A stretch of 48,450 bases of DNA from Deltaproteobacteria bacterium (GTDB lineage Bacteria; Myxococcota_A; Polyangia; Polyangiales; Houyiibacteriaceae). Position 1 is the stretch's first letter. Each line of letters opens with the position of its first letter. The stretch is taken from contig JAXMNT010000058.1 of NCBI GenBank assembly GCA_034670305.1, forward strand, positions 1 through 48,450, in the 5' to 3' direction. Below the pieces are notes generated by a model, which ran no database searches, had not been told where the DNA came from, and saw nothing but the letters and a program-made list of their open reading frames with translations. Of the stretch, positions 32,430-48,226 are shown piece by piece. A program made the translations under genes and the position numbers.

Positions 32430-33149
32430 TTACCGAATCGGGAAACTCAGGACGTCCTCGAGGCGCTCGTTGGACGCGAGCGTGATGTTCCAGCTCCCGA
32501 CCACCGTGCCGGCCACCGAGAGGGTGATGGTCGCGGTCGAGGTCCCGGCGGCGGATTCACATTCGAACAGGTAGTGGAGCCCTACCGAGTACTGACCGGT
32601 GGGCGGCCGTTCGGCGTAGACGAAGTTCTCGACCCGCTGGACCGGCGTGCTGCCTTCTTCTCCTTGGAGCCGCGCGCGCACGCTGGTGGCACCGTTCTCC
32701 GGCGAACAGGAGCCGCGGGCTTCGTGGTCGATGTGGCCACCGCTCTCCACCCGCCGCCGCTGGTAGCTCGCGTCCTCTCCGCCCGGATCGCGGACGTAGA
32801 GATCCAGATCCGCGTCGCTGTTCCACGCGACGGTGATCTGCATCGGTCCGGTCGCGTACCCACAGCCTTCGTCGATCGCGCCATCGCAGTCGTCGTCGAG
32901 CGCGTTGCACTGCTCGGGGGCGTCGGCCGCGCACGCCACGGCGAGCGGCGTCACGCGTTCGTTGGCGACGACCTCTTCGAGGGTCGGGGCCACGAGCGGG
33001 GATTGGGTGAGCGCCGCCGGCGCGACTGCGGTGCGGGCGGTCGCGGTGCCGGTGGTGGTGCCGGAACAGGCCAGGCCCACGCAGCACACCGCGATCCCGA
33101 AGGACCGGGACTTCCAGCCGGGTGTGGGGAGGATGGGGTGGCTGCGCAT
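32430..33149 (-). CDS. Lipoprotein with a Cys/Asp metal-binding-like motif and a YfaP/DUF2135-like domain
   Basis: Lipobox [45 protein letters not shown]...P.GQY. Confidence 0.78.
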
Positions 33150-33190
33150 GACGGGAGTGTAGGCCACCGGCGCCGGTGCGCTACGCGGAG

Positions 33191-33395
33191 GCCGGAGCCG
33201 GTGCCGGTGCCGGTGCCGATGCCGAAGCCGATGCCGATGCCGAAGCCGAAGCCGAAGCCGAATCCGAAGCCGAAGCCGAATCCGATGCCGAAGCCGATGC
33301 CGAAGCCGATGCCGAAGCCGATGCCGAAGCCGACGCCGAATCCGACACCGAAGCCGACGCCGAATCCGACACCGAAGCCGGCGCCAGCCGGTGCC
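33191..33395. repeat. Intergenic hexamer microsatellite (GCCGAA/GCCGAT/TCCGAN)n
   Basis: About 200 bp of 6-bp period with 18-24 bp higher-order units, between the LysR stop and the next gene. Confidence 0.9.
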
Positions 33396-33398
33396 GCT

Positions 33399-34229
33399 CT
33401 ACTGATCGAGCAGCAACTCCCGGAGGGCAGCGGCCGCGGGTGGGAGCCGTTCGAGGCCGCGGTGCAGGATCCGGAACTCGCGAGGGATCGGTGTCTGGGG
33501 GTGGGGGACTTGGATCATCTTGCCGCGGCGAAGATCCTCGTCCACCGCGTTCTCACTCACCAGCGCCACGCCGATGCCCGCGCGCACGTTGCCTTTGACC
33601 GCCGCGATCGAACCGAGCTCCATCGCGATCTCGGCGTCCGGAAACACGCGGTCGAAGATGGTGCGGGTCGTGGCGCCTTGTCGAAAGGTCAGGTGCGGCG
33701 CGTGCTCGACGTCTTCGAGCGTGGGTCCCGCCACCAGGATGAGCCGGTCGTCCCGCCACTTGTCGCCGACCACGCTCGCTTGTTCGAGCTCACTCACGAT
33801 GGCCAGGTCGAGCTCTCCCCGCGCGAGCGCTTCGATCGCTTCCGCGGTCGTGCGCTCGAGCAGCAAGATCCGGACGTGGGGGTGGCGTTTGCGGAACCGG
33901 GCGAGCGCGGCCGGAAGCAAATAGGTGCACGCGGTCGCGCCCGCCCCGACGGTGACCTCGCCCGCGCGCAGCTCCGCGATGTCGAGGGCCGCGCGCTTGC
34001 CTTCTTCCACAGCCACCCACACCGCGCGCGCGCTCGGCAGGAACGCGTCGCCCGCGGCGGTGGGTCGTGCCCCCCGCCGACCTCGATGAAGCAACCGCAC
34101 GCCAACGAACTCCTCCAGGCGCTGGATGGAAGCACTCACCGCGGGTTGCGAGAGATGGGCGTGTTCGGCCGCCGCGCGAAAGGTGCCGTGCTCCACGATC
34201 AACAGAAAGTGCCGGAGTGAATCGAGCAT
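33399..34229 (-). CDS. LysR-family transcriptional regulator
   Basis: [39 protein letters not shown] plus substrate-binding domain. Confidence 0.95.
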
Positions 34230-42325: not shown

Positions 42326-43003
42326 ATGCGCTTGGCACTCTTCGAACCGTCGCCCTCCCCTGCCCGCACTGCCGGTGCGGCCTTCTTGCTCGCGTGCGGC
42401 CTTCTGCTCGCGGCGTGCGGGGACGACTCCGCACCACCGGTCGATGCGGGGCTGGACGCACCCGAAGACACCGGTCCACGGATGGTCGATTCGGGGGGCT
42501 GCATGGAAGGCTGCGCGGACCTGCCGCTGTGGCCGCTCGCGGTCGGGTACCGGTGGGACTACCGCTCGGCGGATGGCTGTTCGCCGAGCGTCGAAGTGAT
42601 GGCCGAAAGCGAGCTCGGCGGGCGCCCCGCGTTCGAGGTGCATCTGCGCTGCATGCCCGACCGCCCCGACGATCTCTTGGCCGATCCTTGGATCATGTTC
42701 CTCTCGCCCGACGGTGACGACCGGGTGCTTCGCTGGCTGGACGAGGTGGACCGGTGGGACCCCTACCTCGAGACCCCGGTCGCGGATGGGACCACCTGGA
42801 CATTCGATGCGCGGACTGCCGAGTACTCGGACGTCACCGCGACACCCGCCATCGTCCCACTCGAGGGACGCGACTGCTGGGTCCAGATCATCCAGCCGAA
42901 GAGCGGGGTGCCGGCCGAGGTCAACGAGTTCTGTCGGGGCTACGGTCCCGTGCGACGCGGAGACGGCAGCCGCAGCCTGCGCGAACTGCCGAACACCCAC
43001 TGA
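42326..43003 (+). CDS. Hypothetical lipoprotein
   Basis: LLAACGDD lipobox, DAG stalk, LWPLAVGYRWDY ... FCRGYGPVR. Confidence 0.72.
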   Translation: MRLALFEPSPSPARTAGAAFLLACGLLLAACGDDSAPPVDAGLDAPEDTGPRMVDSGGCMEGCADLPLWPLAVGYRWDYRSADGCSPSVEVMAESELGGRPAFEVHLRCMPDRPDDLLADPWIMFLSPDGDDRVLRWLDEVDRWDPYLETPVADGTTWTFDARTAEYSDVTATPAIVPLEGRDCWVQIIQPKSGVPAEVNEFCRGYGPVRRGDGSRSLRELPNTH

Positions 43004-43082
43004 ACGCGTGAAGACTGCACGCACCGAGTATGGCGCAGCGCCCGTTATCAAGGCCTGCAGCATGCCCTGGTATCTTTCATCG

Positions 43083-44174
43083 ATGCGCACGTGGACTGGA
43101 CTGCTCTTCATGCTCGCGGCCTGCGGCGCGGGTGAGGTGGATCTCGAACCCGACGCAGCGGAGCGGGACGCCGGCCTCTCGGACAGTGGTCTGGAGGAAG
43201 CCGACGCCCCGCTGCCTTCCGACGCAGCCGAGCCTCTGGATGTGCCCGTCGTGCGGCTGGACGGCGGTGACGTTTTCGTGGACGCAGGCGCCGACGGAGG
43301 CATCGACGGTGGTCCGGTGGAGGTCGACGCCGGCGAAGAAGAGGATCCGCGCGTGATCGAAGCAACGTATCGGGTGCTCCACTGGAACATCGCGGGCGGC
43401 AAAGAGAACGCCTGTGCGACCGCGGGCATCACCCGCGCGGTGCGGCGCTTCGTCCGAGACAACGACGTGGACTTCGTTGGCCTCAACGAGGTGTGCCCTT
43501 CCCAGTTCGCCTCCATCCGAGACGACCTTCGCAACCTGTGGGGCTTGGAGGACGGCAACCGCTTCGCCGCGTTCGTCGGAGACGGCACCGGACGGGTGGT
43601 CGGCAACGCCATCTACAGCCGGTTCGGCCTGCGCGAAGTCGAATCACAGAAAGTCGGCGAAGACCGATACGGCGATCGCAACCTGCTCTGCGGTGAGATC
43701 GCGGGACAGCGCCAGCTGCGTCTCTGCGGCACCCACCTGACGCCGGGCGACGCCACCGCACGCGTTCAGCTCGGCCGGGTGTTGACGCAGATCGAACGCT
43801 GGTGGACCCGGGACCGAGACACCGTGATCCTCACCGGCGACCTGAACATCCACCCCAACGACTCGGGGCTGAACAGCGTCTACAGCGCCGAAGCCAACAC
43901 CCCGAACAACCCGAACAACCGTGGCCGCTACCGCGAGGTCGACGACAACGATCCCGACCACTGCCGTGGCTACGGCGAACGATCGGTGCCGAGCACCGGC
44001 GGCGGTCCCTGCGGCATGGGCGGCAAGATCGATTTCATCTTCGCGCGAGAGAACCGCATCGTGGACGATCGTTACGCCGGCGACACGTTCAACATCCCAG
44101 ACGACTGCACCGGCGTCTGCTCCGACCACCGCCCCGTGTTCGGGCGGCTGCGCCTGCGCGTCCGCAACGACTGA
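43083..44174 (+). CDS. Endonuclease/exonuclease/phosphatase (EEP) family lipoprotein
   Basis: LAAC lipobox; HWNI, GLNEV, GNAIYSR, GTHL, LTGDLN, KIDFIF, SDHRPV. Confidence 0.9.
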   Translation: MRTWTGLLFMLAACGAGEVDLEPDAAERDAGLSDSGLEEADAPLPSDAAEPLDVPVVRLDGGDVFVDAGADGGIDGGPVEVDAGEEEDPRVIEATYRVLHWNIAGGKENACATAGITRAVRRFVRDNDVDFVGLNEVCPSQFASIRDDLRNLWGLEDGNRFAAFVGDGTGRVVGNAIYSRFGLREVESQKVGEDRYGDRNLLCGEIAGQRQLRLCGTHLTPGDATARVQLGRVLTQIERWWTRDRDTVILTGDLNIHPNDSGLNSVYSAEANTPNNPNNRGRYREVDDNDPDHCRGYGERSVPSTGGGPCGMGGKIDFIFARENRIVDDRYAGDTFNIPDDCTGVCSDHRPVFGRLRLRVRND

Positions 44175-44211
44175 CGTCACCGACCACTGAGTTCGTCGAG
44201 CACCGACGCGT

Positions 44212-45147
44212 CTACGCCAGCACCGCGTCCATCGCACCGACCCGCGCCTGCAAGAAGTCCACGGCATGCGCCGCGAAGACGTCCGCATGGTCTTCGTGCG
44301 CGAACAACTTCGCGCCTTCGATCGCGCGGAGCTCGCTCGGCCCTGCGAACTGCTCGAGCATCGCCTTCGCTTTGGGGAGGGGGAAGAACGGGTCGGCGGC
44401 GCCCCAGATCAAACACGTGGGTGCATGGATCCGTGCGTGGGCGTCCTCCAGTTCGTCCACCACGCCCCAATCGAACCCTTCGAGCAGCCGGACCTGTCCG
44501 GCCAACACCGCGGCATCGGTCCGGAGCGGCCGAACGAAGAGGTGGCCGAACGCACCGTCGGCATAGGCCGCATCGGTGAAGCACCCCCCGAATCCCAACG
44601 GGGAGCGGCGCATCCAGCGCCACCCGAGCGAGGCCGAGAACATCTTCAGGCCACCGGGGATCTTGAGCGCGAGAAGGTAGGCCTTCAACTGCCACGCGTG
44701 GTGGCCGGGGATCTCCGTGTTGCCCATCACGAGCGCCGAGACTCGGTCGCCCATGGACGCTGCGGCGAACCGTGCGATGGCGGCGCCGCTGTCGTGGCCG
44801 ATCAGACCGAAGCGGCGCAGTCCCAGTCGATCCACGAACCGCTGCAGCGTGTCGGCGTGCTCCTTCAACCCGATGCGGGCCTCGGGACCGGTGCGCGTCT
44901 GGCCCACCCCAGGCAAGTCGAAGAGCCGGCAGGTGTAGTGCTGCGCGAGGACCGGAACGAGCCGACGAAACGTGGCCGAGTGGAGCGGCCAACCGTGCAC
45001 GAAGACGAGCTCCGGCCCGGTCCCGAACGTCCAGGACGCGAGCTCGCTGTGCCCCACGTCGACCCATTCGTGAGGCGCACCTTGGATCGCCCGCAGCACT
45101 TCGGCTTCGTCGAGGGTGGCCGGCTTCGTCTTTGTGGTCTTGGTCAT
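44212..45147 (-). CDS. Alpha/beta hydrolase (epoxide hydrolase/dehalogenase-like, Asp nucleophile)
   Basis: VFVHGWP, DLPGVG, IGHDSGA, LIWGAADPFFP. Start estimated. Confidence 0.88.
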   Translation of the reverse strand: MTKTTKTKPATLDEAEVLRAIQGAPHEWVDVGHSELASWTFGTGPELVFVHGWPLHSATFRRLVPVLAQHYTCRLFDLPGVGQTRTGPEARIGLKEHADTLQRFVDRLGLRRFGLIGHDSGAAIARFAAASMGDRVSALVMGNTEIPGHHAWQLKAYLLALKIPGGLKMFSASLGWRWMRRSPLGFGGCFTDAAYADGAFGHLFVRPLRTDAAVLAGQVRLLEGFDWGVVDELEDAHARIHAPTCLIWGAADPFFPLPKAKAMLEQFAGPSELRAIEGAKLFAHEDHADVFAAHAVDFLQARVGAMDAVLA

Positions 45148-45192
45148 GTGTGCGTCCATGCGTTGATCCTGAGGCCAGAGCGTGTGGCCTTC

Positions 45193-45211
45193 CATGACCT
45201 CCGAGGTCATG
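45193..45211. promoter_or_regulatory. Perfect palindromic operator candidate
   Basis: CATGACCTC-C-GAGGTCATG, about 45 bp upstream of the hydrolase start. Confidence 0.5.
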
Positions 45212-45374
45212 CCGAACCCGCATGGTGCATCGGGCTGTATCCTCGAGATGCGATGGGGTGTACGAAGGTGGCATGCTGGTGGGCGGTGAAGACCGACTGA
45301 TCGTCCGGGTGGACTGAACCGCTCCGGTTGCCGACGTCGGGCGTTCGGCTCTGGCAACCTGCTAGTCTGAAGGC

Positions 45375-45791
45375 ATGCCGCCGGATTCTGCTTCGATGTT
45401 TCGCGCGATGGTGCTGGCTGGCTGCTCGATGGTGGGGTGCACCGAGGGGCGTGCGGTCGAGGCGCCGGCTGTGACGGCGGCGGCAGAAGCAGAGGCAGCG
45501 GCAGAAGCAGCGGCAGAAGCAGAGGCAGAGGCAGAAGCAGAAGCAGCGGCAGAAGCAGAGGCAGAAGCAGAGGCAGAGGCAGAGGCAGCGACAGCGGCAG
45601 CGACAGCGGCAGCGACAGCGGCAGCGGCAGCGACAGCGGCAGCGGCAGCGACAGCGGCAGAAGCAGAAGCAGAAGCAGAAGCAGAAGCAGAAGCAGAAGC
45701 AGAAGCACCGGCGCCCACGATGCGGCGGGCGGATGCGCCTTGTCCGCCGGGGTCGGAGCGGCCGACGCCGCCTTGTTTCTTCATTCTGTGA
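45375..45791 (+). CDS. Short lipoprotein-like ORF with an Ala/Glu microsatellite stalk and a Cys-containing hydrophobic tail
   Basis: MPPDSASMFRAMVLAGCSMVGC...(AE)n/(AAAT)n...CPPGSERPTPPCFFIL*. The stop is embedded in GTGA next to the ferritin-like gene. Confidence 0.55.
   Translation: MPPDSASMFRAMVLAGCSMVGCTEGRAVEAPAVTAAAEAEAAAEAAAEAEAEAEAEAAAEAEAEAEAEAEAATAAATAAATAAAAATAAAAATAAEAEAEAEAEAEAEAEAPAPTMRRADAPCPPGSERPTPPCFFIL
45483..45706. repeat. Hexamer microsatellite (GCAGAA/GCAGAG/GCAGCG/ACAGCG)n
   Basis: 6- and 12-bp periodic array inside ORF 45375-45791. Confidence 0.9.
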
Positions 45792-45812
45792 AGGTCCCGT
45801 TCGACGATCCGA

Positions 45813-46490
45813 GTGTGGACGCTTCCCGACGCCACGCGCCGGGCGATCGCGCGTCGGTGGACGGAGCGCATTCGGAGCGAACTGGAGGTCGGGTTGGCGT
45901 TCGCGGATCTGGCCGGGCGTTTGGCCGCCGTCGGCGCCGAGCCCGTGGTGGTCCAGCTCGCCGCAGACGCCGCGACCCAGGAGCGCGCCCATGCCGAACT
46001 CTGCCACCAGCTGGCCGAGCGCTATGGGGGAGAGACCGTCGCGCTGCCCTCGCTCGAGTCCTGGGCGCCGGTCGACTTCGGCTTCGCGGACGAGCGGCTC
46101 GAGGTCCTCTTCCAGGTCGCGGGCATGTGCTGCGTCAACGAGACGATCGCGGGCGTGTGGCTGCGCCATTGCGTGGGGCTGTCCGAGTCGCCCATCGCGC
46201 TGGCCGCACATCGGATGCACCTGCGCGAGGAGATCCTGCACGCGCGGGTCGGCTGGGCGCACCTCGCGTCGGACGCCGTCACGCCACCAATGCGCCAGCA
46301 GCTCTCGGGCCGTCTGGCGGAACTCGTGCAGGTGAACGCCGCGCAGTGGGTCCAAGCGGACAAGTACGTCGAGGAAGGGGTGCCCGGCCATGGGCAGCCG
46401 AGCCTCGAAGCATCCCGCGACGTGGTGCGCCGAGCCGTCGAAGAAGTCGTCGTGCCCGGCTTCGTGCACCTCGGTGTGCCGTACTCGTAG
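45813..46490 (+). CDS. Ferritin-like di-iron carboxylate protein
   Basis: Ligand pattern E (RSEL), ExxH (QERAH), E (CVNET), ExxH (EEILH) followed by A.VGW. The true start may be GTG 45788 with a frameshift near 45820. Confidence 0.8.
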   Translation: MWTLPDATRRAIARRWTERIRSELEVGLAFADLAGRLAAVGAEPVVVQLAADAATQERAHAELCHQLAERYGGETVALPSLESWAPVDFGFADERLEVLFQVAGMCCVNETIAGVWLRHCVGLSESPIALAAHRMHLREEILHARVGWAHLASDAVTPPMRQQLSGRLAELVQVNAAQWVQADKYVEEGVPGHGQPSLEASRDVVRRAVEEVVVPGFVHLGVPYS

Positions 46491-46516
46491 CGGGCAGCGG
46501 GCGTCGAAAGCGCCCT

Positions 46517-48226
46517 TCAGCAGCCGCCGTTGCCGCTGGTGGTCGTCGTGCCGCCGACGGATCCCAAACCGCCGACGAAGCTGTCGACGTCGGTCATGCA
46601 GAGGTCGGGGTTGTCGCGCACGATCAAGTCGCGGCCGACCGAGCCAAGCGTATCGAGGGCGTCCAAATCGAACAGGCTGGGGTTGCCCAAGATCTCCAGG
46701 TCGTTGGTCACGAGGGCGAGGTTGTTCATCCCGTCGAGCGACTCGAGTGCCGGGTTGCCGTCGATCTCGACGTTGCCCGCCCGGGTCATGCGTTCGAGCC
46801 CGCGCATGTCGACGAGCGACGCGTTCTCCACGATCCGGATCGTGAACACGGTGCCGTTGACCGGCAGTCCGCGGAGATCGAGCAGCACGCGGTTGCCGTC
46901 GAGAATGATCTCGTCGACCGCATCGACGCCGTCGAGCCCAGAGAGCGAACCGAGCTGGTCGTTCTTCGCGATGGTCATCGACCGCACCCGTCCTGTGAGT
47001 CCATCGAGCCCCGAGAGGTTGGTCAGCCCGGTGTCACTCAAGGTGATGCTGTTGCCGACCCGGGTCAGACCTGCGAGCCCCGACAGCGTCCGGAGCGAGG
47101 GACAGTTGTCGATGGTCAGGTTGCTCCCGATCTCCTGGAGCGTGGACATGGCGCTGAGGTCGTCGAGGATGGGTGCCCCTTGCAGTCGAAGAAACGACAG
47201 CTGGGTTTGCGCGGGAAGTCCGTCGAGCGAGGTCAGGACGTCGGCGTCCAGGATGGCGATCGCCTCCACCGACGTGAGGGCGGTGAGCCCCTCCAGTGTC
47301 GGCAACGACTCAACCCCAGCGATGGTCAGTGCGCCACCAATGGTCTCGAGGGTTTCGAGGCCCACCATCGAGTCGAGCAGAGGCACCCGGTCCAGAAGCA
47401 CCGAACCCTCGACGGTGGTGAGCGCCGGCATCGTCAGGTCGTCCAGCACCCAGTCGCGCACGATGTTCAGATCGCCACCGACCGTGTGCAGGGACTCGAG
47501 TCCACGCATCGACTCGAGCGCGAGGTGCCCCGCGACGAGCAGCTCGCCCTCCACTTCCTCCAGCGATGCGAGTCCATCCAGGGTGGTGAGCGAGGCGTTC
47601 TCTTCGATCGTGACCGCACTGAGCGTCCGCACGGCGCCGAGCCCACGCAGATTCGCCATGTCGCGGTGACCGCGCACTTCGAGCCGCCCACCGATCGACG
47701 CGACACCCCCGAGGCCATCCAGCGACACGAGCACGTCGTTGTTCTGCAGGACCAAGTCGCCAGGGATCTCCGTGACTCCGGCAAGCCCCACGAGCGACCC
47801 GAGCACACCGTTGTCCACCAAGCGCAGGTCGCCGCCGATCGACGCGAGTGCGCCGATCCCGCGGAGTCGCTCGAGACTGGTCCGCAAGATGTGGAGCGTC
47901 CCGTCGATGCCTTCGAGCGCAAACAGCGGCGCCAGGTCGGAGCCGACGTTGCCGTCCAGGGTCAAGTCTCCGCCGATGGACCGACACCCACGGAGCAGCT
48001 CCAGCTCCGCGCGGGTCGTCGCCGTGGCGTCTCCGGGACAGTCCCGCAGCACGACCGGTGCGTCTTCGCCCGACGGAGCGTCCTCGCCTGGCGCGTCGCG
48101 CCCGGGCGCGTCCATCGAACCGCCATCCAGTCCACCGCCGCCGGTGTCTGCGTCGGGCATCGATCCGCCGCCGCCGCCGCACGCCAGCACCAAGACACAC
48201 CCCGCCACCCCCAACGCTGTTTTCAC
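46517..48226 (-). CDS. Lipoprotein with tandem receptor-L-domain-like leucine-rich repeats
   Basis: VLAC lipobox, DAP stalk, then many ~25-aa L.GL..L..I.G.L.I..N..L.SL repeats with Cys caps. Confidence 0.87.
   Translation of the reverse strand: MKTALGVAGCVLVLACGGGGGSMPDADTGGGGLDGGSMDAPGRDAPGEDAPSGEDAPVVLRDCPGDATATTRAELELLRGCRSIGGDLTLDGNVGSDLAPLFALEGIDGTLHILRTSLERLRGIGALASIGGDLRLVDNGVLGSLVGLAGVTEIPGDLVLQNNDVLVSLDGLGGVASIGGRLEVRGHRDMANLRGLGAVRTLSAVTIEENASLTTLDGLASLEEVEGELLVAGHLALESMRGLESLHTVGGDLNIVRDWVLDDLTMPALTTVEGSVLLDRVPLLDSMVGLETLETIGGALTIAGVESLPTLEGLTALTSVEAIAILDADVLTSLDGLPAQTQLSFLRLQGAPILDDLSAMSTLQEIGSNLTIDNCPSLRTLSGLAGLTRVGNSITLSDTGLTNLSGLDGLTGRVRSMTIAKNDQLGSLSGLDGVDAVDEIILDGNRVLLDLRGLPVNGTVFTIRIVENASLVDMRGLERMTRAGNVEIDGNPALESLDGMNNLALVTNDLEILGNPSLFDLDALDTLGSVGRDLIVRDNPDLCMTDVDSFVGGLGSVGGTTTTSGNGGC

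Follow-up and report, generated by a model that had tools for sequence, protein, structure and literature searches.

A conserved two-gene cassette of Polyangia pairing a lipoprotein-type peptide with a ferritin-like di-iron protein

The window analyzed here is a stretch of 48,450 nucleotides with a G+C content of 68.6%, corresponding to positions 1 to 48,450 of contig JAXMNT010000058.1 in assembly GCA_034670305.1 of a deltaproteobacterium placed in the Polyangiales. Toward its 3' end, a small precursor-like open reading frame (ORF) of 138 amino acids is followed on the same strand, 21 nucleotides past its stop codon in the ORF listing, by an ORF of 225 amino acids encoding a predicted di-iron protein of the ferritin fold (Table 1). 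Based on comparisons across genomes, we conclude that the two genes form a real, conserved and undescribed cassette of Polyangia (Myxococcota), of which the window carries a member of the type that we call class A, and that their pairing points to a possible new kind of enzyme-tailored peptide.

The product of the small ORF consists, in this order, of MPPDSASMFRAMVLAGCSMVGC, a linker of Ala, Glu and Thr, and PAPTMRRADAPCPPGSERPTPPCFFIL. The ORF listing and Tandem Repeats Finder thus bear out the original prediction, made from the letters of the window, of a leader-like head, an Ala/Glu linker encoded by a microsatellite and a compact tail. A leader profile locates the head at 45381-45446, where the family motif reads MFRAMVLAG and a lipobox-like MVGC ends at Cys22; we regard the head as a signal-peptide-like leader with a putative cleavage site. 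The linker is encoded by one tandem array with periods of 6, 12 and 18 and the consensus GCAGAA, built from GCAGAA, GCAGAG and GCGACA units; because each period is divisible by 3, gain or loss of copies leaves the frame intact. The contigs of four sequencing runs all end at the repeat and none spans 45469-45719, so that the length of the array in the window is unconfirmed. The linker had also been described as variable in length, and this holds between orthologs, the only level at which variation was seen, where linkers differ in both length and composition. A second hexanucleotide microsatellite (33191-33380; GCCGAA/GCCGAT, about 28 copies) is seemingly intergenic, flanked by a lipoprotein-like gene (32430-33167) and a LysR-like regulator gene (33399-34229), both on the minus strand; in this genome, such repeats thus occur outside coding linkers as well. 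Elsewhere, dinucleotide-codon-type repeats stand directly upstream of paralogous cassettes or ferritin-like genes at L017 (G012:C1:6474900-6480600) and L015 (G000:C5:220500-226200) and translate, depending on the frame, as PMPMPM/LSLSLS and KPKPKP.

Three lines of evidence indicate that the two ORFs are more than chance reading frames. The enzyme frame has a G+C content at third codon positions (GC3) of 0.80-0.97 and a low value at second positions, which is the normal coding pattern of this genome. The head and the tail of the window peptide recur in the same frame at related loci. Finally, when the last 26 codons are compared with those of the closest ortholog, 12 differ synonymously, 10 differ nonsynonymously and 4 are identical, the differences in the tail codons falling 19 times at the third position and 9 and 7 times at positions 1 and 2; by this codon comparison, the synonymous excess shows purifying selection on the tail. 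The exact window peptide is absent from a collection of 15 billion proteins, which is consistent with gene callers missing it. A terminator-like 5-bp GC stem followed by a T-rich run (45758-45771, plus strand) lies inside the ERPTPP and CFFIL codons; we discounted it as a feature because the tail of the closest ortholog ends in TGCGTGCTGATCCTC, without a T-rich run.

For the protein encoded directly downstream, the full E/ExxH/E/ExxH set had been noticed, and this holds well beyond the window. The window enzyme presents E23, E57xxH60, E110 and E140xxH143, plus H136. Across 88 enzymes associated with all peptide classes, E23, E57, H60, E110 and H143 are present in every one, and E140 is present in 84 and replaced by Asp in four. 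An alignment of 26 sequences shows E23, E57, E110 and H143 without exception, and H60 and E140 almost without exception. The additional H136, which completes an AurF-type HxxxExxH stretch, occurs in only 55/88 family members. An AlphaFold2 model (predicted local distance difference test score, 96.3; predicted template modeling score, 0.92) consists of six helices without an N-terminal hydrophobic segment, and the enzyme has no signal peptide. Given the modeled helical-bundle core with its two E...ExxH sets, we assign the enzyme to the ferritin-like di-iron superfamily.

Within that superfamily, the enzyme lies outside all curated families as judged by the searches described here. The window enzyme has no Pfam match at E ≤ 0.1, neither it nor the peptide reaches any Pfam or NCBIfam model, and two homologs, P0006 (22.4 bits) and P0033 (17.4 bits), fall short of the PF11583 gathering cutoff of 29.6. 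A search for homologs of near-equal length returned 44 proteins at E ≤ 0.001, one of them the window's own protein and the other 43 sharing 38-60% identity; none of the 44 has an informative name, one comes from a metagenome-assembled genome (MAG) of Kofleriaceae, and 5 carry a weak precomputed AurF (PF11583) match. The nearest ESM Atlas clusters likewise hold unnamed Myxococcota proteins, a minority of them with ferritin-type Pfam matches. Among solved structures, the only relatives found by sequence-profile search are AurF entries (E of 0.014 and 0.027), in an alignment that spans E110 and the HLR(D/E)ExxH stretch and sets H136 of the window against the HLRDExxH of AurF. A third His ligand in the HxxxExxH stretch is a feature of AurF and CmlI. 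Foldseek returned no match in the PDB at E ≤ 0.001, its top rows being aldehyde-deformylating oxygenases and PaaA/PaaC, and the structural neighbors from a wide VIA-align search are ferritin-like oxygenases with 10-14% sequence identity. PADLOC, run on seven proteins, gave no match.

The window's copy of the enzyme gene carries a frameshift. In orthologs, the enzyme starts with a GTG codon at or just after the peptide stop and reads M-K-(L/V)-P-(Y/F)-D-D-P-x-V-D-A-L; the window keeps this ancestral GTG at 45788-45790, overlapping the peptide stop as GTGA. Owing to a 2-nucleotide deletion relative to P0194, a close relative from the same 90%-identity cluster that reads KVPFDDPSVDALPDATRR in one frame, the first 12 codons at 45788-45823 are out of frame with the remainder of the gene: at about 45821-45824, the window reads GCTT, and GCTCTT would be needed to stay in frame. 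The contigs of the four runs show 0 differences from the window over 45720-46550, and these runs may themselves be the source of the assembly. The frame that is open from the internal GTG at 45813 retains the whole six-helix fold and all ligands, and the window's enzyme, deprived of its normal first 12 codons, may be weakened.

The two genes are associated across genomes. At the first 12 and at 20 further paralog loci, the same-strand ORF just upstream of the enzyme gene has a recurring three-part form: a (R/K)LFHAIV..GA.L..C head, then an acidic stretch of low complexity, then a short end that is conserved. Scanning with a regular expression initially picked up the peptide at 72/80 loci, and five seeming misses or false picks proved on inspection to have it. 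The original prediction proposed, as a check, to look for upstream short ORFs with a shared leader motif beside enzyme homologs, and such ORFs are nearly universal: among 105 enzyme loci (tblastn, E ≤ 1e-10; some are the same place taken twice), 100 have an upstream ORF bearing the family head motif (R/K)LF(H/R)A(I/V)V..GA.L..C, together representing 91 distinct peptides. At one more locus (L024), the peptide gene lies immediately downstream of the enzyme, and the remaining four are uninformative (L049, L071 and L085 have no upstream DNA, and L072 is a partial match). Approached from the peptide side, a 28-column head profile gave 13 matches at E ≤ 0.05 in five genomes, all beside an enzyme homolog, with no orphan peptide genes. 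A head-motif scan of the window's own genome yielded four matches, of which the two true ones (in the window and on contig C46) sit upstream of its two best enzyme paralogs. Several peptide genes may precede a single enzyme gene: Chondromyces apiculatus (L037) has two, and a Kofleriaceae MAG (L080) has three.

An enzyme match is present in 21 of 41 genomes (40 related genomes and the window's own), with up to 12 matches per genome, and a scan of one genome per species identified 365 stretches encoding an enzyme relative. Among the best 80 of these 365, nearly all are labeled as Polyangia lineages (Polyangiales, Polyangiaceae, Sandaracinaceae, Kofleriaceae, Labilithrix, Haliangiales and Nannocystaceae); the remaining labels are broad only (Deltaproteobacteria, Myxococcales, Myxococcota, Proteobacteria and Pseudomonadota), and the exceptions are one Myxococcaceae and one gammaproteobacterial MAG. 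The same best 80 include four cultured carriers, namely, Chondromyces apiculatus DSM 436, Sorangium sp. So ce1078 and two Polyangium strains; the C. apiculatus peptide is on record as a "hypothetical protein" (NCBI) and a "Lipoprotein" (UniRef). The enzyme family is large: at E ≤ 1e-30, a profile search reached 264 representative clusters, and at the looser E ≤ 1e-10 it reached 2180.

More distant ferritin-like paralogs (tblastn E > 1e-10; L014-L016 and L020-L023) were set aside as other subfamilies without a head-bearing ORF. One of them, L014 (G000:C20:122000-125992, reverse; tblastn E about 1e-10, match at 932-1474), is encoded in the same genome downstream of a different signal-bearing ORF (133-660) that includes RARARLLLKSAALTAGSMLVGC, TEEG repeats and two NPKGS(T/L)YD motifs, and it may represent an analogous pairing in another subfamily. 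A metagenome protein of 417 amino acids from the Joint Genome Institute, P0115, reads head, Cys-rich core, about 45 spacer-like residues and enzyme in one ORF and is the sole case with a head at the N-terminus among the 150 best profile hits. We rejected it as a true fusion, as the joining stretch resembles translated intergenic DNA; a lost stop codon or a frameshift probably produced it.

The head of the 91 peptides follows the consensus (R/K)-L-F-(H/R)-A-(I/V/L)-V-x-x-G-A-(A/S)-L..C, with K or R before LF in 81, L in 80, F in 82, A in 61, V in 90, G in 79 and L in 66. The hydrophobic core is interrupted by a polar position, occupied by H in 41 peptides and R in 28, with S, Q, N and P also occurring. 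The Cys lies 13-22 residues past the first L, and a lenient lipobox expression matches 69/91. Mature peptides are mostly disordered or of low complexity and acidic, with a median length of 75 amino acids and a median net charge of -9. Their ends fall into at least eight tail classes: class A, CPPGSERPxPPCxxI[L/K/R] (29 peptides, including that of the window); class B, acidic with a hydrophobic end such as MVLIL (23); class B2, ..EMP[L/A]IR (2); class C, GWxPTK-type ends (6); class D, CEPGWPTTK followed by a Cys-rich part (6); class E, CGCPCCW...CCGG (5); other Cys-rich tails (10); and others (10). A hydrophobic C-terminus ending in IL had been proposed as a common trait, and this holds only in part: the class-A tail is conserved in its 29 peptides, with C21, P30, P31, C32 and I35 invariant in an alignment of 27, but the peptides of this class finish in L, K or R, and PTK, CCGG and further endings are found in the remaining classes.

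Precursor families are usually built in this way, from a conserved head and a hypervariable tail. Between classes, the 15-residue head core keeps an identity of 0.44, the enzyme 0.34 and the tail 0.10. Inside class A, the corresponding figures are 0.56, 0.48 and 0.68, and since the tail is more constrained than the enzyme, it is functional in its own right. When mapped on an enzyme tree of 88 rows, the tail classes require 16 changes compared with a mean of 53 after shuffling (0 of 200 shuffles as low), and class A corresponds to one enzyme clade with a Shimodaira-Hasegawa-like approximate likelihood ratio test support of 91. On this tree, the tail classes follow the enzyme, which shows stable coinheritance. 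A search for enzyme columns that might track the last tail residue in class A (K/R versus L) gave at best an uncorrected p of 2e-4 in about 900 tests, a value confounded by relatedness.

Table 1. Features of the cassette and its surroundings in the window
Feature	Position	Strand	Basis
Alpha/beta-hydrolase gene, divergent	44212-45165	-	ORF map; Pfam Abhydrolase_1, E 4.7e-25
Intergenic region between hydrolase gene and peptide gene, divergent	45166..45374	.	ORF map; presumed cassette promoter region
Small precursor-like ORF, 138 aa (head, linker, tail)	45375..45791 incl. stop	+	ORF listing
Head, residues 1-22, MPPDSASMFRAMVLAGCSMVGC	45375..45440	+	Fits family consensus; leader profile match
Hexanucleotide microsatellite, Ala/Glu/Thr linker	45483..45712	+	Tandem Repeats Finder
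Class-A tail CPPGSERPTPPCFFIL, last 16 codons	45741..45788	+	Alignment of 27 tails
Enzyme's ancestral first 12 codons, GTG start, MKVPFDDPSVDA	45788..45823	+	Three-frame translation vs L002-L005
Ferritin-fold di-iron protein (predicted), 225 aa, open from internal GTG	45813..46490 incl. stop	+	ORF listing
Repeat protein, 569 aa, convergent	46517-48226	-	ORF listing, Pfam

Around the cassette, a sigma-70 consensus scan of 45100-46700 found no site, and Rfam gave no match at E ≤ 1 over 44000-47500. The convergent 569-residue protein has a lipoprotein-like start, MKTALGVAGCVLVLACGG, many leucine-rich-type repeats and weak matches to the Pfam families Recep_L_domain and LRR_EndoS; it is not kept beside the cassette at other loci. 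Farther upstream, a plus-strand frame of 486 amino acids (42714-44174) contains an endonuclease/exonuclease/phosphatase domain (PF03372, E 1.6e-17) preceded by a hydrophobic, signal-like LLFMLAACG stretch and an acidic linker rich in Asp, Ala and Gly.

Our working hypothesis is that the cassette encodes a pre-pro-peptide and a cytoplasmic ferritin-fold di-iron oxidase that tailors it before export, a reading for which we consider the case evenly balanced. Both genes would be cotranscribed and translationally coupled through the GTGA overlap of start and stop found in the intact form. The enzyme, having no signal peptide, would recognize the family head (R/K)LF(H/R)A(I/V)V..GA.L in the cytoplasm, and its E/ExxH/E/ExxH center would use O2 to oxidize a residue of the class-specific tail, here CPPGSERPTPPCFFIL-COOH. 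The head would next serve as a lipoprotein signal: the peptide would be exported by Sec, receive a diacylglyceryl group at Cys22 and be cut by signal peptidase II, yielding an acidic, disordered, lipid-anchored peptide that bears the modified tail. We infer all five of these steps; direct support exists for the pairing of the genes, the conserved heads and tails, the fold and the set of ligands, and these lend partial support to the earlier proposal that the enzyme modifies a C-terminal core before export and display. In favor of the hypothesis, we count the pairing seen from both the enzyme and the peptide side, the selection on the peptide, the precursor-like layout with tail classes that follow the enzyme tree, the loci with several peptide genes before one enzyme gene, the catalytic signature, the putative export signal and the precedent from other systems discussed below. 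The class-specific tail is the most likely target.

A number of observations weigh against this hypothesis. With respect to the window itself, the peptide is not called as a gene, the GC3 in its frame is only 0.30-0.47 within the repeat, an atypical codon usage, and the enzyme gene carries the displaced first codons described above. With respect to the peptides, 22/91 have residues ahead of the Cys that are unusual for a lipobox, no residue is common to all tail classes as a shared target, and classes B and C have no Cys outside the lipobox. With respect to the enzyme, the model is a bare bundle of 225 residues without an added peptide-binding domain, and its nearest folds act on small hydrophobic molecules. 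The stable coinheritance of tail and enzyme is expected for any linked gene pair and is no proof of coevolution. Finally, no third gene family is conserved within 4 kb at the 80 loci, the next commonest occurring in 5, and no protease, transporter or recognition-domain gene is conserved there; this neighbor scan recovered the enzyme itself in only 41/80 loci, which puts its sensitivity at about half, and a weakly conserved third gene could escape it.

Alternatively, the two proteins may be obligate partners rather than enzyme and substrate, with the di-iron protein acting on a small molecule or lipid, like its structural neighbors, and the lipid-anchored acidic peptide being a carrier, receptor, sensor or regulator of the same process. 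We consider this rather unlikely, given that a generic small-molecule enzyme needs neither a neighbor whose head motif is more conserved than the enzyme itself nor tail classes that track enzyme clades, that two or three peptide genes before one enzyme gene fit such a partnership poorly, and that no further pathway genes are conserved nearby. If the peptide is indeed the substrate, the modified part might be the conserved head or the lipobox Cys in place of the tail, and the product would then be a modified, released signal peptide or an altered mature N-terminus. Enterococcal pheromones, which are cut from the signal peptides of lipoproteins, offer an analogy, and the head is the only part conserved across all classes (0.44 identity between classes, versus 0.10 for the tails), with an unusual polar residue in its hydrophobic core (H in 41/91, R in 28/91). 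Nevertheless, this polar position is not invariant, being H, R, S, Q, N or P, and the class-A tail is more constrained than the enzyme (0.68 versus 0.48), so that we regard a head target as improbable.

A conserved lipoprotein-type N-terminus joined to highly variable C-termini, the possibility of several paralogous cassettes in one genome (up to 12 enzyme matches) and a restriction to myxobacteria (among the best 80 of 365 stretches) are also what one would see if the peptide were a polymorphic lipoprotein effector and the downstream protein protected against it, as in the SitA/SitI toxins delivered by outer-membrane exchange. This arrangement seems very improbable to us: immunity proteins vary with their toxins, whereas the metal site of the downstream protein is invariant across classes; the mature peptides are short, mostly disordered and acidic; the conserved class-A tail, with 16 residues, is too small for a toxin domain; and two or three peptide genes share one downstream gene. 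A separate question is whether the cassette is decaying in the window's genome, with the 2-nucleotide deletion at enzyme codon 12-13 and the expansion of the repeat in the peptide gene marking early pseudogenes. The frameshift relative to P0194 and the orthologs L002-L005, its presence without any difference in the contigs of the four runs (if these are not simply the source of the assembly) and the low GC3 in the repeat are consistent with decay. We nevertheless hold it to be unlikely, though not strongly so, as the complete fold of six helices and every ligand can still be read from the in-frame GTG at 45813, the GC3 downstream is still 0.80-0.97 without stop codons, and the hexamer repeat keeps the frame.

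The closest precedent by analogy is provided by the RiPP-lipoprotein hybrids known as DAG-RiPPs (RiPP, a ribosomally synthesized peptide with posttranslational modifications), such as DybA/DybH and NedA/NedBC, in which, according to the accessible part of the report, cytoplasmic non-heme iron enzymes modify precursors with lipoprotein signals that are later triacylated, both the modification and the triacylation being demonstrated by mass spectrometry (PMC13056109, PNAS 2026). As far as that text describes them, DAG-RiPPs share with the cassette a short precursor with an N-terminal lipoprotein-type signal and a lipobox Cys (both putative in the cassette, with MVGC in the window), an adjoining gene for a non-heme iron, O2-dependent enzyme without a signal peptide (the iron and the O2 dependence being predicted for the cassette), a modified motif at the C-terminus, as proposed here for the tail, and processing by the general lipoprotein pathway, for which no dedicated protease or exporter is needed. 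The enzyme of the DAG-RiPPs, however, is in all published examples an oxidative enzyme dependent on multinuclear non-heme iron (MNIO; DUF692, TIM barrel), often with a partner protein, whereas that of the cassette is predicted to be a four-helix bundle of the ferritin fold without a DUF692 match; the cassette peptides are unrelated to the DAG-RiPP precursors described there. In its accessible text, the report mines MNIO neighborhoods only, and the word "ferritin" does not occur. Bufferins, which are MNIO-modified, copper-binding RiPPs with Sec signal peptides, also combine signal-bearing precursors with an iron enzyme that acts before export, in families that are large and often Cys-rich, but they differ, in what is accessible of the two reports, in enzyme fold, precursor families and the presence of further conserved cluster genes, of which the cassette has none within 4 kb (PMC11626156 and PMC12452194).

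On the enzyme side, we know of no PaaA/PaaC-like protein, aldehyde-deformylating oxygenase or R2-like oxidase that acts on a ribosomal peptide. The PaaA/PaaC-like proteins, the cyanobacterial aldehyde-deformylating oxygenase and the R2-like ligand-binding oxidase (PDB entries 4mud, 3pvr, 5ux2 and 4hr0) share 10-14% identity with the cassette enzyme. The AurF/CmlI arylamine N-oxygenases (PF11583; PDB entries 3chh, 2jcd and 5hyh) align with it over E110 and ExxH and have an additional His, four positions ahead of ExxH, that the window matches with H136 and that 55/88 family members have. Full toxin domains are found in SitA proteins. The SitA/SitI pairs of Myxococcus, as described in the accessible parts of two reports, resemble the cassette in being lipoproteins whose N-terminus is conserved and whose C-terminus varies, accompanied by a specific gene downstream (PMC5562445 and PMC8546572); in the cassette, by contrast, the downstream protein is conserved and metalloenzyme-like, and the variable parts are short. 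In a literature search that was thin on subscription journals, we found no paper tying a ferritin-like or AurF-like protein to a ribosomal precursor peptide or to these lipoproteins.

Provided that the peptide is tailored, the cassette would apply the logic of the RiPP-lipoprotein hybrids in a new lineage, using an enzyme fold and precursor families that are likewise new. To our knowledge, the ferritin fold has not so far been found to tailor ribosomal peptides. We tentatively propose, with slightly less assurance than for the tailoring itself, a new class of ribosomal modified lipopeptides, characterized by a ferritin-fold di-iron oxidase, a head that doubles as leader and lipoprotein signal, and hypervariable oxidized cores (at least eight classes, some of them Cys-rich), which would be displayed on the envelope or vesicles of social, predatory Polyangia and possibly serve in signaling, recognition or metal binding. 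The question is directly testable, because the family is diverse in its cores and present in cultured strains. Tailoring of the peptide by this enzyme, if borne out, would add ferritin-like di-iron proteins to the enzyme families acting on ribosomal peptides, and MNIO enzymes would no longer be alone in using the newly described route of modification in the cytoplasm followed by lipidation and export through the lipoprotein pathway. Should the two proteins prove not to be enzyme and substrate, the near-obligate pairing of two unannotated families in a social lineage rich in natural products would still need explaining.

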